Source of the DNA: Promethearchaeota archaeon
GTDB taxonomy: Archaea > Asgardarchaeota > Lokiarchaeia > Sigyniarchaeales > SOKP01
DNA: 12,256 nt
Assembly: GCA_016839745.1 (NCBI GenBank)
Contig: JAEOTS010000142.1
Location: 1 to 12,256 of the forward strand
Direction: 5' to 3'
A model generated the notes under the pieces. That model worked only from the letters and a program-made list of their open reading frames with translations. It made no database searches and was not told where the DNA came from. Numbering within the stretch: position 1 is the first letter of the stretch; each line of letters starts with the position of its first letter. A program made the position numbers and the translations under genes. Of the stretch, positions 1 through 12,100 are shown one piece after another.

Positions 1-1748
1 ACAATATCACCATCTCTTAAATTATATTTCTTGGCTGATACTCCTGGAGATTCATCATTAACTGAATAAAGCCAGTTTTTTTTAAGGTCATTAATACTTT
101 CTACAATAATTCCCCTCTCACCATAATCTGTGATTTCAACCTCACACCATTCGGATAATGCATCAAATGCTGTTGTATTGTAATCTGATAACGTAAAATT
201 TGCCCATGTCACTATTGTTCCATTTCCGTAATCAACTATTAGAGTTATGTCATTGACTTCTCTTAAAGGGGTATTTACTTCACCAACTTCTATACTAGAG
301 GTAAAAACGAAAAATGATGTAAAGCTAGCTATAGCTAATACTGAAATCAATATATATTTATTAAACTTCTTGAATCCTGGCTTGGACCTAGATGTAATAA
401 AAGATGTGGTAATTATAAGCATACTTATCGAAGCTATAATAATATAAGGAAGAATACTTAAGAATAAGTTCGGAGGTGGCCTAGCTTCTTCTCCTGTTGA
501 TTCCCATGGAGTGTAATCATCAATAGCCATTTCAAGTAAATAGTCCCCTATTGAGGTGTAAACCCAAAGTAATAGCCCCGTTCGTTTTTCATAAATAAGA
601 TTTGTATCTTGTTCTCCATCTGTTTGCTCAAATGCAATTTTAATTGTTAACGGTGTTTCTGCAATTGAAACTAAACCATTAGCGAATCCTGTTGCCTCCT
701 GTAATGCTAGTTTCTTCACCCTTGTCAAATTATCAATAATTTGTATAAGTAAACCTGGTTGGAAGTAGTTGTATCCTAGAGTAAAAGTCCAACCTAACTC
801 ACTATTGGATCTATTAGCTATTGTAAAGTTCGACGTTAAAATACCAGTTTTATTTTCTACTATTTCAATATCAAACCACGGAATAGGATCATCTATAACA
901 TTACCCCAATCATTTGGATCTTTATTATAATATCCCGTTAAATTAGCAATAATCTGTCCTCCGGGATTGGTATTCCAATCTCCCTCAAACCCTCCTGTTA
1001 AATTATACCAACCTGTAGCTCCACTAAATTCGATGATATTATAAATAAAATTATCCTCAAGGGTAAAATTTAGCGATTTAATCTCAAGTAGGTAACCTAA
1101 GACGCTACTCTTCGCCCAAACTAGCAATCCTGTCCATTTATCGTAGATAAAATAAGACTTTTGTTCTAATCCGCCAATTTGTTCAAAACCAATATAAAAG
1201 AAATTGTAACTTTCTTCAATATTTACATCTCCTTTACTATAGAATCCTCCGGGATCAGATTGGTTTAAAGCTAACTCCTTTATATATGTTAAATTTTCAT
1301 TTGGTATTAAAAATCCAGGTTGAAAATTGTTATATCCAAGAGTAAGAGCTCTCGCAACTTCACTATTAGATCTGTTATTTAAAGTAAAATTATTATTAAG
1401 AGTACCAAGATTATTCTGGTAGATTTCAATGTCATACCAAGGTATTGGATCACTAAAGACATTACCCCAATCATTCATATCCTTATTATAAAAATCTGTA
1501 AGATTGATTCGTATTTGCCCTCCAGGATTAGTCTTCCATTCACCTTCAAATCCAAATGTAAAATTATACCAGCCAGTTGAATCCCCGAAATGTACAACTT
1601 CATATACATAAGGCTTATTGAAATTGAGATTTGGGGAATAGGATTCCGAAATCGTTTGTTCAGCTTTTGTAAAGGGGATAGATCCCGAATGGAGTAATTG
1701 AATAAATAAAAAAAGCGAAATAAAGTATAACAGCTCCTTATTCTTCAT
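1..1748 (-). CDS. Membrane-anchored surface (glyco)protein: signal peptide + 2x ~185-aa repeat domain + 2 TM helices + C-terminal DUF4430/transcobalamin-like domain (3' end runs off the window)
   Basis: Hand translation from ATG 1748 is open for 582 codons to the window edge: MKNKELLYFISLFLFIQLLHSGSIPFTKA-EQT...; TM1 ILPYIIIASISMLIITTSFITS; basic loop RSKPGFKKFNK; TM2 YILISVLAIASFTSFFVFTSSI; C-terminus ITLIVDYGNGT...TTAFDAL...YGERGIIVESIN...NWLYSVNDESPGVSAKKYNLRDGDI matches the DUF4430 pattern (V.SI.G...W.Y.VN...P.vga..Y.L.DGD.I). Not in the ORF track because no stop codon lies inside the window. Confidence 0.88.
   Translation of the reverse strand, partial: MKNKELLYFISLFLFIQLLHSGSIPFTKAEQTISESYSPNLNFNKPYVYEVVHFGDSTGWYNFTFGFEGEWKTNPGGQIRINLTDFYNKDMNDWGNVFSDPIPWYDIEIYQNNLGTLNNNFTLNNRSNSEVARALTLGYNNFQPGFLIPNENLTYIKELALNQSDPGGFYSKGDVNIEESYNFFYIGFEQIGGLEQKSYFIYDKWTGLLVWAKSSVLGYLLEIKSLNFTLEDNFIYNIIEFSGATGWYNLTGGFEGDWNTNPGGQIIANLTGYYNKDPNDWGNVIDDPIPWFDIEIVENKTGILTSNFTIANRSNSELGWTFTLGYNYFQPGLLIQIIDNLTRVKKLALQEATGFANGLVSIAETPLTIKIAFEQTDGEQDTNLIYEKRTGLLLWVYTSIGDYLLEMAIDDYTPWESTGEEARPPPNLFLSILPYIIIASISMLIITTSFITSRSKPGFKKFNKYILISVLAIASFTSFFVFTSSIEVGEVNTPLREVNDITLIVDYGNGTIVTWANFTLSDYNTTAFDALSEWCEVEITDYGERGIIVESINDLKKNWLYSVNDESPGVSAKKYNLRDGDI
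513..1610 (-). repeat. Intragenic tandem domain duplication (copy 1 ~1610-1065, copy 2 ~1049-513)
   Basis: aa 47-148 and aa 234-335 align without gaps (offset 187 codons/561 nt), about 65/102 identical by hand count (TGWYN, GFEG.W.TNPGGQI, YNKD.NDWGNV..DPIPW.DIEI, NRSNSE, TLGYN.FQPG). The C-terminal halves share FEQ..G, IY(D/E)K.TGLL.W and YLLE. Confidence 0.95.
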
Positions 1749-1777
1749 AGAATCAATCTTTTTATATTAAATTTTTT

Positions 1778-1820
1778 TAGGAAACTTGTGCTAGGATAGC
1801 TTTCCTATATATTTAAATAT
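1778..1820. promoter_or_regulatory. Candidate divergent promoter/operator: inverted repeat TAGGAAA-N16-TTTCCTA plus palindromic TATA-like ATATTTAAATAT
   Basis: TAGGAAA at 1778-1784 and TTTCCTA at 1801-1807, with inner GCTA-gga-TAGC at 1790-1800. A perfect 12-bp palindrome at 1809-1820 gives TTTAAATA on both strands, near the middle of the 135-bp gap between divergent genes. Confidence 0.4.
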
Positions 1821-1883
1821 TGTGAAAAATTCTGATCCTAAACATATAGAGTTAAAAATAAGTTAATTGAAGATAATAAAAGT

Positions 1884-2546
1884 ATGATTCTCATTGCAAA
1901 ACCAACTAAAGATGTAAGTAAATCCCAAATTTTAGTAGAAAAAAATTCTGAGAAAATAGAAACTGAAAAACTTAATAGTTCGGTGTGGTTAGAAAGAAAA
2001 ACATTTCGGATTGCACTTATTGGCACATTTACGGCTTTATCTATTGTTCTAGGGTATTTAATGGCATATATACCCAATCTCGAGGTTTTTACTATGATGA
2101 TCTTCTTATCGGGCTTCATTATGAACAAAAAAGAAGGAGCTATAATTGGTTTATTGAGTGCATCCATTTTTACTTTTTTCAATCCGTTAGGACCTTCTCC
2201 TCCACCACTTTTCATATACCAGTTAATTCATTATTCGTTAACAGGAATTTTAGGCGGACTCACGAAAGATTTCTTACGAAACAAGCAGTATTTTAAACCG
2301 ACAGAGGATTTGTATATTTTTCGAATAATGTTGTTGTTTGGATTCTTAGGAGCTATTATTACATTTATATTCGATATATTGAGCACTTTATTTGGTGGAT
2401 TTGTAGTTTCTATTACAATCGAGTATTTTATAGCAACATATTTATTTGGTATAGTGTTTACTACAATCCATTTAATAGGAAACATTTTAATTTTTGTATT
2501 TCTTTTGCCTGGATTAATTCAGCTAATTATGAAATTAATAGATTAA
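1884..2546 (+). CDS. ECF transporter S-component, CbrT-like (putative cobalamin/corrinoid-specific)
   Basis: 220 aa with about 6 hydrophobic helices. Helix 1 IALIGTFTAL carries the small-xxx-Ala S-component motif. IPN loop 1, Q...Y in helix 4, and last-helix GIVFTTIHLIGN resemble the CbrT G..F...H..GN pattern. About 35-aa hydrophilic N-terminal leader; exact start uncertain. Confidence 0.8.
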   Translation: MILIAKPTKDVSKSQILVEKNSEKIETEKLNSSVWLERKTFRIALIGTFTALSIVLGYLMAYIPNLEVFTMMIFLSGFIMNKKEGAIIGLLSASIFTFFNPLGPSPPPLFIYQLIHYSLTGILGGLTKDFLRNKQYFKPTEDLYIFRIMLLFGFLGAIITFIFDILSTLFGGFVVSITIEYFIATYLFGIVFTTIHLIGNILIFVFLLPGLIQLIMKLID

Positions 2547-2597: not shown

Positions 2598-3080
2598 TTA
2601 ATTTGCTTCCGAAAGGAGTGTAACTTTGCCGCCCGCGGATTCAATTTTTTCAATTGCTCGTTTTGAAGCTTTATCAACTGTTAGATTGATCTTTTTGTTA
2701 ATTACTCCACGACCTAAGATTTTTTGGATGTTAATATCTTTTAAATTGATAGTGTAAGTATTTCCTGTCTTAGTAGCAACATTTTTTAGCGTGAGGTCTT
2801 CAATTTTTGAATCTAAATCTTTTAGGTTTAGCGCGTTTACGCGGTAGATTCGGTTAATGTCTTGGGGTCTCTTAAAACCTCGTTTTCCGAAATCCCAATC
2901 TGGATCTGGGAATCCAAGTTCTTTTTGTTTGAGATAATAGGATTTTTTGCTTTTCTTCCATTGGGTTGTTTTTCCTTTTCCAGCTCTTTGACCCGCCTTT
3001 CGGTGTTGACCAACTTTTCCATACCCTTGCGTACGAGTTCCTCTCATTTTTCGAATTCTTTTAGGAAATTTTCGCGTAAT
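2598..3080 (-). CDS. rpl15: 50S ribosomal protein uL15 (probable ATT start at 3080; track start 3047)
   Basis: KMRGTRTQGYGKVGQHRKAG, FGKRGF, KILGRG and ASKRAIEKIESAGGKV motifs. The frame extends upstream as (I)TRKFPKRIRK to an in-frame TGA at 3089-3087. SD GGTGA at 3091-3087 lies 6 nt before ATT. Confidence 0.93.
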   Translation of the reverse strand: MTRKFPKRIRKMRGTRTQGYGKVGQHRKAGQRAGKGKTTQWKKSKKSYYLKQKELGFPDPDWDFGKRGFKRPQDINRIYRVNALNLKDLDSKIEDLTLKNVATKTGNTYTINLKDINIQKILGRGVINKKINLTVDKASKRAIEKIESAGGKVTLLSEAN

Positions 3081-3098
3081 ATCATATCACCATTCTAT

Positions 3099-3632
3099 TT
3101 ATATCATTTTATGAATTAATTCGTTAATAAACTGATGTACATAGCCCAGAGTTCCGCCTTCATTGTAATGTTTTTTTATCGTTCCACGGTGTCCTTTTCT
3201 TGGGGGATGTAACCGAAAAACTGGCTTTATTTTATACACATCCGAAGTTCTATATTGAATTTCTCCGGATATTAAAGCTTTGGAAAACTCTTTTAAATTC
3301 TTGTATTTAGTCAGATTTTTGATATGTTCATCTGTGAGTGGTTTGTTACCTTCAACTTTTCCTCTCGCTCTTAATAATCTTAATAGAACCTTCTCATCGA
3401 TTTCCCCATAAGCTATATAATCTTTACATTTATTAAGCATACCCAAATAGCTTATTTCTCCCCATATAAGGACTCCATGATTAACTTTATGCATCCTTAA
3501 CATTTTTAACGTGTCTAAAATTGTGCGCTTCATCCCCGGAGCACCTCTTATACGAACTGCAAAGTATAGCGCAGGGGGTTTGGATACTTTCATTTTGGGT
3601 TTTTTTCTTACAACTACATTATTTTCAGCCAT
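3099..3632 (-). CDS. rpl30: 50S ribosomal protein uL30 (archaeal long form)
   Basis: AVRIRG, TLKMLRMHKVNH, YIAYGE, KPVFRLHPPRKG, GGTLGY. ATG 3632 fits the spacing from SD GGTG (3642-3639) better than the track's GTG at 3644. Confidence 0.95.
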   Translation of the reverse strand: MAENNVVVRKKPKMKVSKPPALYFAVRIRGAPGMKRTILDTLKMLRMHKVNHGVLIWGEISYLGMLNKCKDYIAYGEIDEKVLLRLLRARGKVEGNKPLTDEHIKNLTKYKNLKEFSKALISGEIQYRTSDVYKIKPVFRLHPPRKGHRGTIKKHYNEGGTLGYVHQFINELIHKMI

Positions 3633-3651
3633 CATATACACCACTCATCGT

Positions 3652-4284
3652 TTATAAGTTGAAATTAAATTTGTGAGCATTTTTAAGAGCATTGAAAGTA
3701 GCTTTTACAAGGTTCTCGCTTGTTCTGGTGTCACCGAAGGTTTTGCTCCATACATCTTCAATCCCCGCTAATTTCAATACTTGTTTTACTTTATCAGCAC
3801 ACGCTAATCCAACTCCTTGCGGAGCAGGAATCAAGCGTATTTTGACAGAACCACATTTTCCATCTACTTTAAATGGTACACTGTGAGTATGGCCGCAACC
3901 GCATTCTTTACTACCACACCCTCTAAGAACAGGAACCACGGAAAGCTTGGCTTTGTCAATTGCTTTTCTTATTGCAGGTCCTACTTCTCGTGATTTTGCT
4001 GAACCAACACCAATAAAACCATCAGCTCCAACGATAACGACTGCTTTAAATCTAGATCGTTGACCGCTAGCGGTCATTTGTTGTACCATGTTAATTGTAA
4101 CGACGCTTTCCTGAAGTTGTGGAAGGAGAACATTAATGATTTCTTTTTCTTTGACTACAAGATTATTAGCGAATATTTTGTCTAAAGTGATTAATCCTTG
4201 TTGAACTAATTCACCTAATCGCGTGGAAGGAATCCAGCCTTCATCAGGATTTCTTTGACTTCTTTGATTTCTTTGTCGACTCAT
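3652..4284 (-). CDS. rps5: 30S ribosomal protein uS5
   Basis: WIPSTRLGELV, GQRSRFKAVVIVG, RGCGSKECGCGHTHSVPFKV, LIPAPQGVGL, AGIEDVWS. Confidence 0.98.
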   Translation of the reverse strand: MSRQRNQRSQRNPDEGWIPSTRLGELVQQGLITLDKIFANNLVVKEKEIINVLLPQLQESVVTINMVQQMTASGQRSRFKAVVIVGADGFIGVGSAKSREVGPAIRKAIDKAKLSVVPVLRGCGSKECGCGHTHSVPFKVDGKCGSVKIRLIPAPQGVGLACADKVKQVLKLAGIEDVWSKTFGDTRTSENLVKATFNALKNAHKFNFNL

Positions 4285-4296
4285 TTTAATTCACTT

Positions 4297-4890
4297 TTAT
4301 GTACTACTCTCAATTTTTTTGAATGTATTAGAAACCATTTGACTAATTTTTTGTGGATTAATATTATTTTTTTTTAGATAACTTGAGAAAACTTGTTCAT
4401 ATTTTTCAGGATTCTCACTTTTTAAAAGACTTGCATATTGTTCTATATGAGAACCTTTTATTGTTTCCTCTATATTGCTTGGAAAGAAATCTTCGTTGTG
4501 GGGGATATCAATTCCTGATTGCACTATACCTTTAAAAGCCGCAAGCACTCGGTTTCTGTGATAAAATATACCTAAATCAAGGATGGCATCTTGCACATTC
4601 TGTTTTTTTGCCCTTATACCTGCTAAAAATCCGGTTAAATATGCGGCTGGAATATTTCCTGTGTTAGCATTCCACCCAAATTTAGAAACTAATTCCTTAG
4701 AATGAGCAGAGACAATAACTTTATCGCCACCAATTTTAGATTGAATAATTTGTACAATAGTATGATTATTTGAAGCCCTAATTACAGCTCTTAGTTTTTT
4801 TGATTTTAATAATTTCATTCTCTTATGATAATTCGTCTTACCTTCAGCTCTCCTTCTGAAAGGTCTTCGGTATCTTGGTCCTTTTGCCAC
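4297..4890 (-). CDS. rpl18: 50S ribosomal protein uL18
   Basis: MAKGPRYRRPFRRRAEGKTNYHKR, GNIPAAYLTG, AILDLG; GTG start. Confidence 0.98.
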   Translation of the reverse strand: MAKGPRYRRPFRRRAEGKTNYHKRMKLLKSKKLRAVIRASNNHTIVQIIQSKIGGDKVIVSAHSKELVSKFGWNANTGNIPAAYLTGFLAGIRAKKQNVQDAILDLGIFYHRNRVLAAFKGIVQSGIDIPHNEDFFPSNIEETIKGSHIEQYASLLKSENPEKYEQVFSSYLKKNNINPQKISQMVSNTFKKIESST

Positions 4891-4893
4891 TTT

Positions 4894-5349
4894 CTATCTA
4901 CCTCTCCTTACTAATTCCTTTTCTTTAATATGCCGATTCATCTGAGCAACACTGTTAAACATCCCGCCTTTAGCGTTTTTGTATAGCTTCCTATAAGTCG
5001 CTGTGGTAATTAATTTCCGATCCCTTAACTTTTTAAGTTCTCGTCTTTGCGGACGAATTCGATTCATCCACATTTTTTTCTTTGGCAATCGAGCATGTTT
5101 AGTTCCCTTTCTTTTTCCTAATCCTCTAGCTCTACCTTTCTTCTTGCGCTCATGTCGTACATTTTTTCTATATTTTGAGTTTCCTTTTTTGTATTTTTTT
5201 ATTATTATGCCTTCTTTTACTAAATTGCGGACATCCTCTCGAGTAATTGCCATTTTGATCTCATCAATTAGATAGGGATCGAAGTAGACTCGATTTTCCC
5301 CACATTTTAATATTTCCGCTGCCATTCTTTTTTGGGCTTTTAAACTCAT
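4894..5349 (-). CDS. rpl19e: 50S ribosomal protein eL19
   Basis: MSLKAQKRMAAEILKCGENRV, AITREDVRNLV, GKRKGTKHAR, YRKLYKNAKGGMF. Confidence 0.98.
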   Translation of the reverse strand: MSLKAQKRMAAEILKCGENRVYFDPYLIDEIKMAITREDVRNLVKEGIIIKKYKKGNSKYRKNVRHERKKKGRARGLGKRKGTKHARLPKKKMWMNRIRPQRRELKKLRDRKLITTATYRKLYKNAKGGMFNSVAQMNRHIKEKELVRRGR

Positions 5350-5387
5350 CCATTATCACTTTATGTCTTAATTTATAACGATTTTTT

Positions 5388-5852
5388 TTAGTCCTCATCT
5401 TCTAGCAGATCTTCATCTTCTAAATCTTCTATAGAAGATACTAATGCTGCTTCCAAACTCTCTAATTCTCTTTGTGAGATTCCTAAATTTAGGACTTTAA
5501 ATCCTCTACTTTGAGCGTAATCAATTACACTTATTCTTTTCTTTACGCCTAGTTTTGTTGATACTTTAATAGCGTGTTTTTTATTATTTAGACCTTTCAA
5601 ATCATTTATATTATGAACTCTTACCTCTTCGTATCCCGAAGGATGTAATCCTCTCACTTTTTTAGGGCCTCTATATCCAACTGAAGGAGATTTAACTCCG
5701 GATTTAGACTTTATCCTAGTTCGTGAATCAATCCCTCTTGCTTTTCTCCACGAATCCTTTACTCTTACGTATCTCCAAGATTCAACACGTCTAAAAGAGG
5801 GTCGTTTTTTCTTGATTTTTTTCCGAAGTTCTATCATTCTTTTTTGTTCCAT
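5388..5852 (-). CDS. rpl32e: 50S ribosomal protein eL32 with acidic C-terminal tail
   Basis: KKKRPSFRR, WRKARGIDSR, VGYRGPKKVRGLHPSGYEEV; SD GAGGT upstream. Confidence 0.97.
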   Translation of the reverse strand: MEQKRMIELRKKIKKKRPSFRRVESWRYVRVKDSWRKARGIDSRTRIKSKSGVKSPSVGYRGPKKVRGLHPSGYEEVRVHNINDLKGLNNKKHAIKVSTKLGVKKRISVIDYAQSRGFKVLNLGISQRELESLEAALVSSIEDLEDEDLLEDED

Positions 5853-5867
5853 TATTATAACCTCAAT

Positions 5868-6446
5868 TTATTTTATTTCCCAGGTAATTTCTTCTCCATT
5901 CTGAATTTTGTAGAGGTACACTCCGTCTTGAAAAACTCTTGGGTCTTTTTTTCTAATTCTACATGCTTTCTTTATATTTGCGGCCGTTTGCCCTAAAGTT
6001 TCTTTATCAGGACCAATTAAAATAACATCTTCACCATCGATTTTAACTTCTACATTTTCTAAATATTTGGTGACGCGAGGAGCTCTTTCTCCTAGAAAAT
6101 TTACAATATGAATTTCTTTTTTATCGGGTATCACTTCTACGGTGCATGGAAAATGACTATAACATACTTTACATATGTATTTATAATTTGTTTGAACACC
6201 ACTTATTAAATTTTTAATTAAATTTATAATAGTCTTAACCAACGCGAGCGTTCCGCTTTTTGGGAAGTGCGTGGTAAAGATCATTTTATTCCCTTCAATT
6301 TCTACCTTAATACCTCTCACGTGCGAAAAATCTTTTGTGATTTTTCCATTTGGTCCACTTACAGTAATATGATGATTTCCATCAAGTGTAACTGTAACTC
6401 CTTTCGGAATTTCCATTTCTTCTTTAAAAAATGCTACTTTTACCAT
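5868..6446 (-). CDS. rpl6: 50S ribosomal protein uL6
   Basis: EIPKGVTV, VSGPNG, YSHFP, NFLGERAPR, GQTAANI, KDPRVFQDGVY. Confidence 0.98.
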   Translation of the reverse strand: MVKVAFFKEEMEIPKGVTVTLDGNHHITVSGPNGKITKDFSHVRGIKVEIEGNKMIFTTHFPKSGTLALVKTIINLIKNLISGVQTNYKYICKVCYSHFPCTVEVIPDKKEIHIVNFLGERAPRVTKYLENVEVKIDGEDVILIGPDKETLGQTAANIKKACRIRKKDPRVFQDGVYLYKIQNGEEITWEIK

Positions 6447-6468
6447 TTATCATTACCTTTATTTAAAA

Positions 6469-6852
6469 TCAATAAATATAACATAGAGTCATTCCACCGA
6501 TATTTTTTTCTTCTGCTTCCTTAACGGTCATAATACCTTGATTTGTTGTAAGCACGATTATTCCTAAACCCGGTGCTGGTAGTAGTTTTCTTTCAAGCGA
6601 TTCAAATTGAGAAATGTTGTAATTAAGCCTCATTAAACCAGAGCAATGATTAATTTTGCCTAACAACGCTATTTTGAACTTACCTTGCCTACCATCGTCA
6701 TACCTTTCAAATTCCCCGATATATGCGTGTTGTTGGAAGATCCGAAGAACCATTTGATTTAATTTCGAAGCTGGGCTAATTATAACTTCTTTTTTTCGTG
6801 CTTTTTCTGCGTTCTTAAGGTCGTTACACATATCCGCCAGTGTATTTGTTAT
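6469..6852 (-). CDS. rps8: 30S ribosomal protein uS8 (probable ATA start at 6852; track start 6831)
   Basis: KNAEKARKKEVIISPASKL, YIGEFE, DDGRQGK, LLPA, IIVLTTNQGIMT, GGMTLCYIY. The upstream in-frame (I)TNTLAD corresponds to the conserved uS8 N-terminal xxLAD helix. An in-frame TAA sits at 6858-6856 and SD GAGGTG at 6864-6859. Confidence 0.95.
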   Translation of the reverse strand: MTNTLADMCNDLKNAEKARKKEVIISPASKLNQMVLRIFQQHAYIGEFERYDDGRQGKFKIALLGKINHCSGLMRLNYNISQFESLERKLLPAPGLGIIVLTTNQGIMTVKEAEEKNIGGMTLCYIY

Positions 6853-6880
6853 TTTTTACACCTCATATCTAATTTCAATA

Positions 6881-7027
6881 TTAATCATATCTATAAAATC
6901 CAATTTCTTTTCCAATTTCGTAAAAACAACGACGACATATATATAAACCATACCTCCTTATTATACCTCTGTGTGTATGGCAACGTCTACACTCTCTTTG
7001 ACCTTTACCTAATTTACCTTGTGGCAT
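6881..7027 (-). CDS. rps14: 30S ribosomal protein uS14 (Zn-finger type), 48 aa, absent from the ORF track
   Basis: MPQGKLGKGQRECRRCHTHRGIIRRYGLYICRRCFYEIGKEIGFYRYD*; CxxC...CxxC; SD GAGTGA 5 nt upstream; canonical position between uL5 and uS8. Confidence 0.97.
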   Translation of the reverse strand: MPQGKLGKGQRECRRCHTHRGIIRRYGLYICRRCFYEIGKEIGFYRYD

Positions 7028-7052
7028 AATTATCACTCTTGTTTTTAAATAA

Positions 7053-7658
7053 TTAAATAAAATCTAATTCTAATTTATCAACAATTTCAATTCCAAAATT
7101 TTTTTTTAAGAAATATTGAGCTTCTAAGCGAGAGACATAATGATGTTTGGGTACTTTAGCTTGCCCTTTTCTTCTGTATTTTACTCGCATTCCAGGTCTC
7201 ACTATTCGACCAACAACATCAAGCCCCCAGATGCCAATTACATTGTCATATTCTATTCCTGGAATGGTAATATGTTCTGTAATTCCAAACCCAAAATTTC
7301 CATAATTATCGAAGCTTTTTTTTAACATTTTATCATTGTTTACGACAAAAAGTCTTTTTAATAATTTTTCAGCTTCTTGATTGCGAACGGTAACCATTGT
7401 ACCGATTGGACGTCCTATTCTCAAGTTAAACTCTTTCACATTTTTCTTAGATAAAGTTTTTACAGCAGTTTTACCAGAGATAGTTTGTAAGACGGTAGCT
7501 GCTCTCTCTAACTCTTCTCCTCCAGCACCCACTCCAATATTAAGAACTACCTTTTCTAAATAAGGTTTCTTCATCGGGTTAGTCCACATTTCTTCAAAGA
7601 TTTTTTCTTGTTCCTTCATAGATTTTTTCTTCGTTTCTCTTACTGCTTTCGCTGACAT
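7053..7658 (-). CDS. rpl5: 50S ribosomal protein uL5
   Basis: NPMKKPYLEKVVLNIGVG, PIGTMVTVR, FDNYGNFGFGITEHI, IGIWGLDV, RPGMRV; about 25-aa charged N-terminal extension. Confidence 0.98.
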   Translation of the reverse strand: MSAKAVRETKKKSMKEQEKIFEEMWTNPMKKPYLEKVVLNIGVGAGGEELERAATVLQTISGKTAVKTLSKKNVKEFNLRIGRPIGTMVTVRNQEAEKLLKRLFVVNNDKMLKKSFDNYGNFGFGITEHITIPGIEYDNVIGIWGLDVVGRIVRPGMRVKYRRKGQAKVPKHHYVSRLEAQYFLKKNFGIEIVDKLELDFI

Positions 7659-7679
7659 GACAAATTTCCTCTCTTAATA

Positions 7680-8432
7680 TTATTCTAATTCTGGTAAATT
7701 AATTTCAGATTGGTCTTCTCCTATGATAAAAGTATAGTCATAAAGGGTTTCAGTATGCTCTGAATTATGTTGTATAGATACTGTACTTGCTTTCGGACCG
7801 AACCTCTTTAAAATATTTATGACTTTTCCCACTTGTCCAATATTTTTCCCGGACATGATTAATGCTAAATTCCCTTCCTTGAACTTTAATACTTTTAGAA
7901 TTTCTTGCTCAGGAACGGAAATTTTTAATACATCCATTCTTTTATAAATATCCTCTTTAGGTTTTCTTGGATCCTTCACCTGTACAAATATATTTCTTCC
8001 ATCGTGTAAGTTTAATTGTATATGTCCTCCCTTTAATGTGGATTTCTGAGTAATTCTACACAATTTAAACATACTCTCTGCTTCGACTATTTCGTGCAAT
8101 ATCAATCCGTGGTGAGAATCTGGAAGAATTCGATAATGTTTGTTCAGCTTTTCGATGCTTAACACATCCATTAAACCTACAGGATATGTTTTATCTCTAA
8201 CGATCTTTCCATCTACTTTAAAACGGCCTAATCCTATTAATTTTTTTGCTTCTCTGTGGTTATCAACTATATTTAATAGATCCCTTACGATATGTAGTAA
8301 TGGTAAACAGAATCTACCAGGGTGAGGTCCCGGTGATGGTTTCATAAAGAATTTGCCATGCTTTCTTTTTATTTGTAAGAATTTGGGCGTATTAAGTCTT
8401 TTTAAAGCTCTTGTGCCACCATGTCTAGTCAT
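7680..8432 (-). CDS. rps4e: 30S ribosomal protein eS4
   Basis: LKRLNTP, PSPGPH, LPLLHIVRD, VDGKIVRD..YPVGLMDV, KLCRI, QLNLHDGRN, GKNIGQVG. Confidence 0.98.
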   Translation of the reverse strand: MTRHGGTRALKRLNTPKFLQIKRKHGKFFMKPSPGPHPGRFCLPLLHIVRDLLNIVDNHREAKKLIGLGRFKVDGKIVRDKTYPVGLMDVLSIEKLNKHYRILPDSHHGLILHEIVEAESMFKLCRITQKSTLKGGHIQLNLHDGRNIFVQVKDPRKPKEDIYKRMDVLKISVPEQEILKVLKFKEGNLALIMSGKNIGQVGKVINILKRFGPKASTVSIQHNSEHTETLYDYTFIIGEDQSEINLPELE

Positions 8433-8864
8433 CTATATCTCTTCCTCCTCTTTTTGTTTTTTGGGAGCTTTTAACTCTTCATCAGTGAATCCAAAGACAA
8501 CTTTACGATCAATCATGTTTGCTCTCCATGGGTCCATTTTCTTCTCTTTAGAGAATTTAGTTATTACTACTTTTGAAACATGAATCGCAGGATGAAATTG
8601 GGTTCCATCTGCTTTGTCAAAAGTCGCTTCCTTTATTTTTATGCGCTGATTTTTAGTTATCTCGATTACCTCGCCTTCAAAGTCTTTGAACTCACCTCTT
8701 GTAATTCGTACTCCATCGCCCACTCTTATAGGAAGCGCTTTTATCCCATATTCTTCTCTTAAAAAATCTGCAACTCTTGCAGACAATAACTTTGACCGTT
8801 GATGATTCTGATGCTGATATAATGCTTTCCTCTGTCTCCGAGGTTGTTTTGAATTAACTTTCAT
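8433..8864 (-). CDS. rpl24: 50S ribosomal protein uL24
   Basis: SKQPRRQRKALY, LPIRVGDGVRITRGEFK (KOW), KADGT, IHVSKVVITK. Confidence 0.97.
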   Translation of the reverse strand: MKVNSKQPRRQRKALYQHQNHQRSKLLSARVADFLREEYGIKALPIRVGDGVRITRGEFKDFEGEVIEITKNQRIKIKEATFDKADGTQFHPAIHVSKVVITKFSKEKKMDPWRANMIDRKVVFGFTDEELKAPKKQKEEEEI

Positions 8865-8886
8865 TTTTTTTCACACTATTTTTTAT

Positions 8887-9312
8887 CTAAATAATTAATG
8901 AAGAAATTGAGGCTAAACGTGGAAATAATTCCGCAGCTTCTCTTGCTATAGGTCCACGAATTTCTGTGGCTTTAGGATCGCCTTCTTTGGTTATTATCAC
9001 ACCAGCATTATCTTCAAAACATAATCTAGTTCCGTCTAATCTTCTAAAGATCATTTTCTGCCTAACTATTACCGCTTTTAAAATATTTCCGCGTAAATCT
9101 GGACGACCTTTTTTAATAGTTACTGTACAAACATCTCCGACAGTAGCTTTTGGTAACCTCCTTAATCGCGTCTTTGCGTGATCTACATTAATAATTTGTG
9201 CTATTTTAGCACCTGAATTATCTGTAATAAAGATTTTTGAACCGTTTTGTACACCATAACTAGTTCTTGGTTTAACTAGCGTTTTTCGTCCAAGCTTTCT
9301 TCTCGTTCCCAT
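8887..9312 (-). CDS. rpl14: 50S ribosomal protein uL14
   Basis: DNSGAK, RRLPKATVGD, KKGRPDLR, AVIVRQ, RRLDGTRLCFEDNAGVI, GPIAREAAE. Confidence 0.98.
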   Translation of the reverse strand: MGTRRKLGRKTLVKPRTSYGVQNGSKIFITDNSGAKIAQIINVDHAKTRLRRLPKATVGDVCTVTIKKGRPDLRGNILKAVIVRQKMIFRRLDGTRLCFEDNAGVIITKEGDPKATEIRGPIAREAAELFPRLASISSLII

Positions 9313-9663
9313 CTAAGCAGCCCCAGTTTTTAATTTTTCTAATACTATGAAAGCTTTTGTTTTAGAAAGTTTTCTACTTTCTCCAACTCGCACTAAATCT
9401 CCTACTTTAATTTCGTGATCAAGACATTCAGGTAGGTGACATGCGAGTCTCGAATTACGCCTTTCATATCTTTGATATTTTTTAACGAATTGAACATAAT
9501 CCTGCCTGATAATTACGGTGTTTCTTGATTTTTTGTTAACAACTACTCCTTTAGTAATTTTTCCTCTGATTCGTGATTTCCCATGGAATGGACAATCTTT
9601 ATCACTACATTCACGGGTAGTTGGGGGATTAACTCCGGGAATACCAATATTTCTAACGCTCAT
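9313..9663 (-). CDS. rps17: 30S ribosomal protein uS17
   Basis: RNIGI, CSDKDCPFHG, KKYQRYERR, HLPEC, GDLVRVGESRKLSKTKAF. Confidence 0.98.
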   Translation of the reverse strand: MSVRNIGIPGVNPPTTRECSDKDCPFHGKSRIRGKITKGVVVNKKSRNTVIIRQDYVQFVKKYQRYERRNSRLACHLPECLDHEIKVGDLVRVGESRKLSKTKAFIVLEKLKTGAA

Positions 9664-9664
9664 T

Positions 9665-9958
9665 TTATTTCCTTGACCACTTCTTTTTTTTTAAACTTCT
9701 TAATCTATTTTCAGGAATGCCTACAATCTTTGATCCATTCACTTCTAGCGTTCCATCATTAAGCTTGATTCTAAAAAAATAATCTTTTTTGATATATTTT
9801 TTTATTATTTTATTTTTCTCTGATATTAACATATTCTGAGTATCATCAATTACCACGCCAATATCTAGGAATTTAGAATTATTTGGCTTTGATTTAAGTC
9901 TAGCTTCTACTTCAAAGCCAATTAAATCGTGGTAAATCAGATATTTTGGGCTTATCAT
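9665..9958 (-). CDS. rnp1: Ribonuclease P protein component 1 (Rpp29/POP4 family)
   Basis: ISPKYLIYHDLIG, GVVIDDTQNML, VNGSKIVGIPENRL; conserved archaeal position between uL29 and uS17. Confidence 0.92.
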   Translation of the reverse strand: MISPKYLIYHDLIGFEVEARLKSKPNNSKFLDIGVVIDDTQNMLISEKNKIIKKYIKKDYFFRIKLNDGTLEVNGSKIVGIPENRLRSLKKKKWSRK

Positions 9959-9969
9959 TATAAAATCAT

Positions 9970-10167
9970 CTATTTTTCTTCGTTTTTTACAGTAAGAATC
10001 CTTGCTATTTGCTTTTTTAGAAGTTTTGCCTTCGCAGGGTTATCTGAGATACCCCCACCAGTTTGCTGGCTGTATAACATCATTAATTCTTCTCTCAATG
10101 TTATCAAATTCCTCTCTCTTTCTCTTTCGTCCATTTCTCGAACCTTTGCTGCCGTAATAATATCCAT
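9970..10167 (-). CDS. rpl29: 50S ribosomal protein uL29
   Basis: AKVREM, LREELM, GG..DNPAK, KKQIARILTVKNE; SD GGGAG upstream. Confidence 0.95.
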   Translation of the reverse strand: MDIITAAKVREMDERERERNLITLREELMMLYSQQTGGGISDNPAKAKLLKKQIARILTVKNEEK

Positions 10168-10201
10168 TTTTTACTCTCCCTTTTTTTATTGAGTTTTACT
10201 T

Positions 10202-10993
10202 CTATTCTTCAGTTTGATCATCAGATTCTTTTTCTGATTCTAAAGAGATTTCAGAAATATCTTCTTCTTCGACTTCTTCGAATAATTCTTTCTCTACCTC
10301 AGTTAATTCTTCTTCTTCCTCAGAAACTTCGTAATCCTTTTCAGCTTTCGTTTTAGTTATTTCTGATATCTTTTTTGCTTGAGCTTTTGCTAAAGTTTCA
10401 TCATTAATTTTAACTGTGTCGCCCATTCTTATATCTGCGTGCATAATCTTAACTATAATCCCAAGAGTACCTGATTTCTGAATACATTGAGCTACACCTC
10501 TATCTACTCCTTCTTGAGCCGGCTGTCCTGATTTTTTCATTGTACCTGCCCTAAAAACTGTAGTTCGAGCCCGTTGTGAAGTTACTTTGCCAGAGACGAT
10601 AATTTCTGTGCCTTTAGCTCCAGAATCCATTATTTTTCTCAAAATGTAATACCCTGCTCTTCTGTAATGCCTTCCCCGATCTAACGAATATGCTAAACGT
10701 TCCGCCATAATTTGTGCGTTTAAATCTGGGTTTGGTACTTCTTCTACTTCAATCTGGGGCATTTCTAGTCCAAATTTATCTTGAAGGACATCCGTAATCT
10801 CTTGAATACGCTTTCCACCCTTCCCAATCACGAGTCCTGGTCGACTTGTTTTTAGAGTAATCCTAACTCCGAGGGGTGTCTTTTGAATATCAACACCTGC
10901 AAATCCTGCACGAACAAGTTCAGATCTCAAATATTCGTTTATTTGCATTAACTTAATACCCTGTTCAATAAAGTGCTTGGCTAAAGGACTCAT
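10202..10993 (-). CDS. rps3: 30S ribosomal protein uS3 with long acidic C-terminal tail
   Basis: KH domain RPGLVIGKGGKRI, PDLNAQIMAERLA, GAKGTEIIVSGK, GTLGIIVKIM. Confidence 0.98.
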   Translation of the reverse strand: MSPLAKHFIEQGIKLMQINEYLRSELVRAGFAGVDIQKTPLGVRITLKTSRPGLVIGKGGKRIQEITDVLQDKFGLEMPQIEVEEVPNPDLNAQIMAERLAYSLDRGRHYRRAGYYILRKIMDSGAKGTEIIVSGKVTSQRARTTVFRAGTMKKSGQPAQEGVDRGVAQCIQKSGTLGIIVKIMHADIRMGDTVKINDETLAKAQAKKISEITKTKAEKDYEVSEEEEELTEVEKELFEEVEEEDISEISLESEKESDDQTEE

Positions 10994-11042
10994 ATTCTTT
11001 AATCTCTTTGATTATTTAATTTAATCTATTAAAATTTTTAAC

Positions 11043-11522
11043 TTAACTTGGAAATTCATAAATTACAATTTCTACGTGACTTAGATGCCCAAATTTTGCG
11101 GATGATCTACCATGAGCACGCTGAATATAACGCTTAATTATCCGACCTCTGTGCGTAGCAGAGTGAATAATTCTACATTGTTCGGTGTCTAAACCTTTAA
11201 ATTCTGCATTGGATTCTACTGATGTGAGGATTTCATAAATTCTCGCAGCAGCTTTTTGTGGATATCGACCAGCATACCAATTAAATTGTTTTAAATCCTT
11301 TCTATGAGCTTGCTTCTTTTTATGTTTTCTAAAAGGGACTGATTGCTGTAGCTGAATTACTTTTTCAAGATATATCTTAGCTTGATCTACTTTCATACCT
11401 TTAATTACAGCACAAATTTCTCTTGCTGGTTTTGGTTTTATGCGTAAATCTCTCCCCGCAGCTTTAGCTAGTCTATCTGCGTCATATTTTTGCTCAGTAA
11501 AGGAATAACCCCAATTTGGCAT
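11043..11522 (-). CDS. rpl22: 50S ribosomal protein uL22
   Basis: AREICAVIKGM, VPFRKH, GRYPQKAA, NAEFKGLD, RAHGR, SHVEIV. Confidence 0.98.
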   Translation of the reverse strand: MPNWGYSFTEQKYDADRLAKAAGRDLRIKPKPAREICAVIKGMKVDQAKIYLEKVIQLQQSVPFRKHKKKQAHRKDLKQFNWYAGRYPQKAAARIYEILTSVESNAEFKGLDTEQCRIIHSATHRGRIIKRYIQRAHGRSSAKFGHLSHVEIVIYEFPS

Positions 11523-11566
11523 TACTTATCATCTCAATTATTATTTTATTATTAACGATTATTATT

Positions 11567-12100
11567 CTATTTTAATGGAACATATTTACTTGAACGTGTG
11601 GCTCCGATTCCTGGTGAACCATGTTGAACATACCTTCTAGTTAATGAAAACTCTCCTAAGTAATGAGCGATCATTTCAGGTTTAACCTCTACAATTTCAT
11701 ATGATTTTCCGTTGTATACCCCGATTTTTAAACCAACCATTTCAGGAAAGATCAACATATCTCTAACATGGGTTCTCGTAAGAATATCTTTTCCTCTTTT
11801 CTTAGCTCTATAAGCCCTTCTAAGTCTTTCGAGGAGTTTTTTCTGTCTGGGGGGCAATCCTCTTCTTAACGATCTTCGTGCTCTTGCCGGAAGTAATTGG
11901 ATAAATTCGTCCATATTCATTTTTTTAAGCTCTTCTAATGTATGGCCGCGATAATGAAATTTGAGACGATCTCTCTCTTTTGCTAAATCTAATTCTTTAT
12001 CGTCTATTTCTTCTTCAAGTTCTTCTGAGGATTCTTCTGATGCTTCCTCATTTGTCATTTCTTTTTGTTCTTCATTATCTTGTTCTTCATTCGGAGACAT
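11567..12100 (-). CDS. rps19: 30S ribosomal protein uS19 with acidic N-terminal extension
   Basis: [71 protein letters not shown]; SD GGTGG upstream of ATG 12100. Confidence 0.98.

Follow-up and report, generated by a model that had tools for sequence, protein, structure and literature searches.

A conserved Asgard gene pair of a DUF4430 surface protein and a CbrT-family ECF S-component as a candidate cobamide-capture module

The combination of a transcobalamin-like binder with an energy-coupling factor (ECF) transporter is already a known design, reportedly predicted between 2007 and 2009. In transcobalamin itself, an alpha/alpha-toroid and a beta-domain close around the ligand from two sides. 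This report concerns a 12,256-bp stretch of a Lokiarchaeial genome (contig JAEOTS010000142.1, referred to in full length as the window), in which the gene for a DUF4430 surface protein stands divergently beside the gene for an ECF substrate-binding membrane subunit (S-component) of the CbrT family. The host belongs to the Asgard archaea, the prokaryotes to which eukaryotes are most closely related as far as is known. They engage in obligate partnerships, and what the partners must supply is a central question. Among the described systems closest to this locus are three from bacteria. Bacterial transcobalamin-like proteins are encoded in CbiO/CbiQ-type (ECF) operons of B12 non-producers, for which B12 scavenging was predicted (Burroughs, Balaji, Iyer, Aravind 2007, PMC1796856). 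In Lactobacillus delbrueckii, the transporter ECF-CbrT (PDB 6FNP), from an nrdJ-cbrS-cbrT-pduO cluster, was characterised in 2018 (Santos et al., PMC5997447). The Lsa1836-1840 operon of Lactobacillus sakei combines ECF S, AA' and T components with beta-domain-like and alpha-domain-like proteins (10.1101/864751).

The window is one whole contig (C118) of an 89%-complete draft genome of 3.5 Mb. The gene pair at its beginning probably encodes those components of an ECF-type cobamide importer that capture the substrate. Its features, including two copies of a beta-rich domain here called domain X, are as follows, with the evidence for each in brackets.

1884–2546, plus strand: CbrT-family ECF S-component, 220 residues (open reading frame and translation, profiles, AlphaFold2 model)
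1749–1883, no strand: divergent spacer of 135 bp, AT-rich, with TATA-like runs facing both genes (sequence)
3–1748, minus strand: surface protein gene, 582 residues within the window and 588 with contig C150 (open reading frame, PF14478, AlphaFold2 model)
1662–1748, minus strand: signal peptide, residues 1–29, hydrophobic at 6–24 and then FTKA/EQ (hydropathy, model helix 3–21, sequence reading)
1065–1643, minus strand: first copy of domain X (X1), residues 36–228, beta-rich (AlphaFold2 model)
513–1064, minus strand: second copy of domain X (X2), residues 229–412, tandem duplicate of X1 (sequence comparison)
285–473, minus strand: two-helix membrane hairpin, residues 426–488, with a short basic loop RSKPGFKKFNKY (hydropathy; helices 428–455 and 457–485)
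3–260, minus strand: DUF4430 or transcobalamin-type beta-domain, residues 497–582, the last six residues and stop being on C150 (PF14478)

The two divergent reading frames and the spacer described in an initial annotation of this DNA were thus recovered, and the motifs quoted there (IALIGTFTAL, IPN and GIVFTTIHLIGN) are all present in the 220-residue product. The TATA-like runs were spotted by eye and, in a genome of 30% GC, are not significant alone.

The S-component comprises a hydrophilic N-terminal extension of about 37 residues followed by a six-helix core (residues 38–220, nucleotides 1995–2543), and its homologues number in the hundreds. When the family profile was compared with the PDB, CbrT (6FNP_A) was matched at E 1.1e-10 and PanT followed at 0.013, with nothing further listed. 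A profile built from 16 Asgard sequences only still matched CbrT at 6.3e-9, and the match is therefore independent of the bacterial members; RibU came next (0.033), PanT scored 0.86, and BioY, FolT and ThiT were unlisted at E ≤ 10 in these searches. By this comparison, in which CbrT is ranked against other specificities by profile E-values rather than by phylogeny or reciprocal search, the family is nearest to CbrT, the B12 S-component of 6FNP, as the initial annotation had proposed. The profile alignment pairs the IPN(L/V) loop (an IPNV-type loop-1), the helix-1 G/AxxxA motif and the C-terminal F..H..N motif quoted in the initial annotation with their counterparts in CbrT. In S-components, a small-xxx-small (AxxxA-type) motif in helix 1 serves for EcfT docking; here G47-T-F-T-A51 aligns with A-L-L-T-A of CbrT, and A51 is conserved in 90% or more of the family members. 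An AlphaFold2 model made with 50 homologues (predicted local distance difference test score, pLDDT, 84.9) displays the six-helix S-component fold. Structural alignment of this model with VIA-align gave Z 11–15.2 and root-mean-square deviations (rmsd) of 2.6–4 Å over 150–179 residues against FolT, PanT, RibU, ThiT, BioY and HmpT, as compared with Z ≤ 7.6 for unrelated helical folds. The identification as an S-component rests on the family profiles together with the predicted fold.

Separately, members of the S-component family in KSB1 and other bacteria were seen to carry a C-terminal fusion to a TonB-dependent receptor-like part (766–927 residues; P0153, P0168, P0184, P0197, P0241 and about 11 more; loci L020–L022). 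This part includes a Plug domain, and its best matches, which are weak, are to heme/hemoglobin and BtuB receptors. An inner-membrane carrier and an outer-membrane barrel in a single polypeptide form an odd combination; in another KSB1 genome the two are separate, overlapping genes.

The divergent partner is read, from its N-terminus, as signal peptide, X1, X2, transmembrane hairpin and DUF4430 (AlphaFold2 model, pLDDT 85.6, and hydropathy). About 120 full-length orthologues occur in Lokiarchaeia, often under the NCBI name 'DUF4430 domain-containing protein'. The gene is truncated by the end of C118; contig C150 overlaps the reverse complement by 127 nt and adds the last six codons and the stop, giving 588 residues. 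This join is supported by a relative in which a 589-residue orthologue precedes the same genes as on C150, namely Roadblock/LC7 and an archaeal SelB-type elongation factor (aSelB). The C-terminal domain matches Pfam DUF4430 (PF14478) at residues 525–581 with E 3e-7; its score of 31.2 bits (35.8 in a whole-genome search) exceeds the curated threshold of 23.8. Likewise, an Asgard DUF4430 profile matches the beta-domains of haptocorrin (4KKI residues 330–433, E 9.8e-5) and intrinsic factor (2PMV/3KQ4, E 0.026), as well as 3U7Z, the structure of a DUF4430 protein from a bacterium (E 0.057). The initial annotation had described a surface protein ending in DUF4430. The domain is confirmed by these matches; the last six codons lie beyond the contig end, and the domain-X repeats and the hairpin had been missed. 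In the model, examined for a beta-grasp fold, residues 497–552 form a strand-strand-helix-strand-strand unit (pLDDT 80–92). A fold search with the full 582-residue model returned multi-domain matches of low template-modelling score that left the DUF4430 domain uncovered, and searches with the single sequence (P0001) gave chance matches only in the PDB and none in NCBIfam.

The protein contains 16 N-x-S/T sequons where 7.7 ± 2.4 are expected, all within X1, X2 and DUF4430, a pattern that fits an exposed, glycosylated ectodomain. In combination, the signal peptide, the cleavage of which is predicted from its sequence, the basic loop of the hairpin and the restricted sequons fit a topology in which DUF4430 would lie outside the cell.

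Past the TAA stop on C150 (L016, 147–347), an in-frame relic of the C-terminal half of a second DUF4430 was noted, with 38% identity to residues 510–581. It is kept in a relative (L007:5650–5930) at about 83% DNA identity, with an in-frame TGA, and has the appearance of a degenerate tandem copy of the domain. BtuH, considered as a further DUF4430 protein, was dropped, as the BtuH paper gives its B12-binding domain no known homologues.

The two copies of domain X share 53.6% identity over 179 residues (E 3e-63). The domain belongs to no Pfam family, and in the ESM Atlas it has no named relatives, with scores at chance level. Sequence relatives were found in Asgard archaea only, every one of them annotated as hypothetical, and in other Asgard families the domain is a separate gene of 240–265 residues (hidden Markov model E 1e-6 to 4e-13). 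With VIA-align, both copies matched LolA, RseB, MucB, VioE and DUF1849 at a weak Z of 5–6.5, below the level that permits a fold call, with rmsd 3.8–5 Å; for X1, 110–124 residues were aligned to LolA, RseB and DUF1849 at about 4 Å. Domain X may thus be a LolA/RseB-like open barrel, which is a lead only. Judged from its sequence distribution, it is a new, Asgard-restricted partner domain, placed where bacteria have the alpha/alpha-toroid.

The linkage between the two genes was surveyed in 151 Asgard genomes; as related genomes are non-independent, plain counts are given without a statistical test. The S-component was found in 107 genomes, DUF4430 in 97 and both in 88. In 82 of these 88 the pair is on one contig, at most 3,223 bp apart, and in three of the remaining six (G071, G081, G113) both matches are situated near the start of a contig, at a distance of about 2.3 kb or less. 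Conservation of the pair, expected in the initial annotation for related genomes, consequently extends well past close relatives and across the phylum. DUF4430 occurs essentially once in each genome, and two genomes scored as having DUF4430 only carry a divergent PF07155-type S-component immediately upstream of it. In the most frequent arrangement (45/82), DUF4430 precedes the S-component on the same strand, and the two are separated by a gene of about 240 residues, which encodes a stand-alone domain-X protein. Direct adjacency in either order accounts for 20 genomes, the divergent arrangement of the Lokiarchaeial fused form for 16, and in a single genome DUF4430 follows the S-component on the same strand at a distance of about 570 bp.

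A close relative of the host has the same divergent pair. In a Lokiarchaeon with a 75%-identical S-component, the long gene is split into a 277-residue protein (signal peptide, one X domain, C-terminal anchor) and a 129-residue protein (N-terminal anchor and DUF4430). The hairpin of the fused form is explained by such split relatives, where its counterparts are the C-terminal anchor of the X protein and the N-terminal anchor of the DUF4430 protein. Upstream of a 43%-identical S-component, directly and on the same strand, stands a gene for a 410-residue X-DUF4430 protein. Gene fission and fusion hence connect X and DUF4430 among Asgard lineages.

In the initial annotation, the S-component was taken either to use a motor encoded outside the window or to work alone. 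A motor was found on contig C110, where two ABC ATPase genes and a CbiQ/EcfT gene form a stand-alone EcfA-EcfA'-EcfT module, without an adjacent S-component. The host genome has three ECF systems in all, the other two being YkoEDC-like and CbiMNQO. These further dedicated systems are on C116 (L014:4163–7494) and C180 (L015:3228–5953). The YkoEDC-like system consists of a PF09819 S-component, EcfT and a protein of 605 residues in which two ATPases are fused; the other, a cobalt/nickel system, comprises CbiM, CbiQ, CbiO and a CbiN-like protein with a PDGLE domain, though markers of corrin synthesis were unfound.

The genome encodes 11 open reading frames with a B12-binding domain, and neither CbiC, CobS, CbiB nor a FecCD/BtuC-type permease was found in its 89%-complete assembly. 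Because this is a draft, relatives were surveyed for CbiC, CobS and FecCD. At the level of the family, 26 genomes were covered, 16 of them high-quality; CbiC was found in none, CobS in five and FecCD in 14. Within the genus, the search took in four genomes (the host included, and two rated 100% complete) and found neither CobS nor FecCD. The genus thus appears to use cobamides while lacking both their synthesis and the usual import system. Since markers of synthesis and of nucleotide-loop assembly and a BtuCD-type importer were not found, the module is the only candidate cobamide importer found for the genus. Literature searches on Asgard or Lokiarchaeal cobalamin uptake yielded no relevant paper.

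Each refuting condition set in the initial annotation that lends itself to computation turned out in favour of its reading. From these observations, we infer the following route. The 588-residue protein would act as an N-glycosylated surface receptor, anchored by the two-helix hairpin, with DUF4430 as the prokaryotic counterpart of the transcobalamin/intrinsic-factor beta-domain. DUF4430 and the two predicted domain-X barrels would capture scarce corrinoids outside the cell, and the receptor would hand them to the S-component. The latter would sit in the membrane, bind the corrinoid, its presumed substrate, and be powered by the stand-alone EcfA-EcfA'-EcfT of C110. Such a module offers a concrete, clonable target for a test of vitamin dependency, and it would extend the design of transcobalamin-like binder plus ECF transporter to a whole archaeal phylum. 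To our knowledge, ECF transporters are defined by the absence of an extracytoplasmic binding protein. A bolder reading, which we regard as tentative and somewhat unlikely, is that domain X replaces the toroid and, together with DUF4430, builds a bipartite corrinoid clamp that is anchored in the membrane and docks on the CbrT-type S-component. The protein would then be an obligate ECF surface receptor and a near-universal Asgard cobamide route. If true, Asgard ECF transporters would have an obligate, dedicated surface receptor, and through it syntrophic B12 non-producers would draw cobamides from their partners.

A number of results weigh against cobamide import by the pair. The locus contains no B12-specific genes, the neighbours being ribosomal protein genes, Roadblock/LC7 and aSelB, and no cobalamin riboswitch was detected in the whole window (Rfam scan, E ≤ 1). 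In the surface protein and its neighbours, across the Asgard loci examined, no Pfam match to an alpha/alpha-toroid or prenyltransferase-like domain was obtained. The S-component (P0002) scores 21.5 bits (E 2.6e-4) against PF12822, under the curated cut-off of 30.7; orthologues from other Asgard families exceed the Pfam cut-off (38.5 bits for L031, and 36.6 bits for L038 with PF07155). Searches with its single sequence gave chance matches only in the PDB and none in NCBIfam. The AlphaFold and Foldseek comparison suggested in the initial annotation recovered the S-component fold and failed to rank CbrT against other S-components, 6FNP being outside Foldseek's 178 candidates. Bacterial relatives of the S-component (30–38% identity; KSB1, Cloacimonadota) occur apart from DUF4430 and in mixed contexts, including QueH and histidine utilisation, with no consistent link to B12. 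Finally, the calls of absent biosynthesis genes rest on draft genomes.

Several of these points recur in the best-surviving alternative, that the module imports some other micronutrient and that its kinship with CbrT and transcobalamin reflects ancestry without a shared substrate. Burroughs et al. cautioned that archaeal versions may bind another metabolite (PMC1796856); that caveat concerned B12-making archaea, whereas CbiC was found in none of the 26 genomes of the family studied here. The specificity of S-components shifts readily, the identity to CbrT is low, and the bacterial relatives stand beside QueH with radical SAM genes or beside hut genes. The possible LolA-like fold of domain X is one that usually holds hydrophobic ligands. 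However, the two proteins point independently to B12, the S-component through its best PDB match and DUF4430 through its matches to B12 binders, and the genus yielded no second candidate for B12 import. We therefore consider a different micronutrient unlikely.

The same capture-plus-ECF system could alternatively import heme or a different tetrapyrrole. In L. sakei, heme uptake fell when the Lsa1836-1840 operon was deleted, and heme is the substrate favoured by the authors of that study (10.1101/864751), which is a further point against a cobamide; the TonB-dependent receptor parts fused to bacterial S-components have weak best matches to both heme/hemoglobin and B12 receptors. Conversely, CbrT, the sole biochemically characterised relative, transports cobalamin and cobinamide, and hemin is no competitor (PMC5997447). 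The solved eukaryotic relatives of DUF4430 bind cobalamin, and the unmet B12 need of the genome is clear. A heme substrate thus appears quite improbable. The last alternative, that the genes are functionally unconnected and adjacent merely through synteny inherited beside the ribosomal operon, is near-refuted: in Lokiarchaeia the pair does always lie between the uL15 end of that operon and Roadblock/aSelB, in a block common to close relatives, but inherited synteny alone is insufficient, because in other Asgard families the essentially single-copy DUF4430 keeps its place by the S-component in quite different surroundings (HisRS, PAS kinase, ScpAB, DUF4443), with order and orientation changed.

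The remainder of the window is occupied by a ribosomal protein operon (2598–12100, minus strand), the last gene of which, uL15 (2598–3047), is convergent with the S-component gene. In the window and in the related Lokiarchaeial loci displayed, secY is absent 3' of uL15. The other flank, on C150 (L016, 375–1822) and in the relative (L007:1–5653), contains Roadblock/LC7, aSelB and, in the relative, SepSecS; this flank represents selenocysteine machinery and is a conserved block adjoining the ribosomal operon. In four other Asgard families, a protein with a winged helix and DUF4443 (PF14544, PH0730-like_N/CggR_N) adjoins the pair (L031:5758–6384; L032:5743–6378; L033:2913–3593, minus strand; L038:4055–4699), and is a candidate regulator of the module. 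The single DUF4443 copy of the host genome is at C4:27331–27630 (L039), about 5 kb from an open reading frame with a B12-binding domain.

Compared with the described systems, the pair of DUF4430 receptor and S-component is less novel than the initial annotation claimed in treating the architecture as uncharacterised in archaea: the prediction of such a pairing dates from 2007 (PMC1796856), a characterisation of ECF-CbrT followed in 2018 (PMC5997447), and what is unusual are the domain-X repeats and the hairpin. ECF-CbrT is the best and sole strong PDB sequence match of the Asgard S-component, with aligned IPNV-type loop-1, helix-1 and F..H..N motifs, and in L. delbrueckii, too, CbrT stands alone and relies on an EcfAA'T module that is shared and encoded elsewhere. 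Unlike ECF-CbrT, the Asgard form is archaeal, of low identity and extended by 37 residues at the N-terminus, and its gene lies apart from B12 enzymes (nrdJ, pduO) and is partnered with that of a large, membrane-anchored DUF4430/domain-X protein.

The bacterial SLBB (DUF4430) proteins resemble the Asgard protein in that a secreted or surface DUF4430 is genetically tied to ECF components in hosts without B12 synthesis. However, they are usually fused to or paired with a toroid and anchored by a sortase motif or a lipid, whereas the Asgard protein has domain X and transmembrane helices; in addition, the Asgard ECF motor is encoded away from the locus, and for archaea a role in B12 binding was doubted in the 2007 paper (PMC1796856). 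L. sakei Lsa1836-1840, the sole such system with genetic data, similarly joins an S-component with extracellular proteins that resemble the beta-domain of transcobalamin. Its operon also includes T and fused AA' genes and encodes an alpha-like (toroid) protein, and a role in heme uptake is claimed for it, in contrast to the Asgard locus with neither motor genes nor toroid. The vertebrate carriers transcobalamin, intrinsic factor and haptocorrin possess a C-terminal beta-domain homologous to DUF4430, but they are soluble and clamp B12 between an alpha6/alpha6 barrel and the beta-domain, whereas the Asgard protein is barrel-less and membrane-anchored. Relative to the bacterial binder-plus-ECF systems, the Asgard form is thus distinguished by a locus without riboswitch or motor genes, by transmembrane anchoring, by domain X in place of the toroid, by the Lokiarchaeial X-X-hairpin-DUF4430 fusion and by a near-obligate linkage that spans the phylum.

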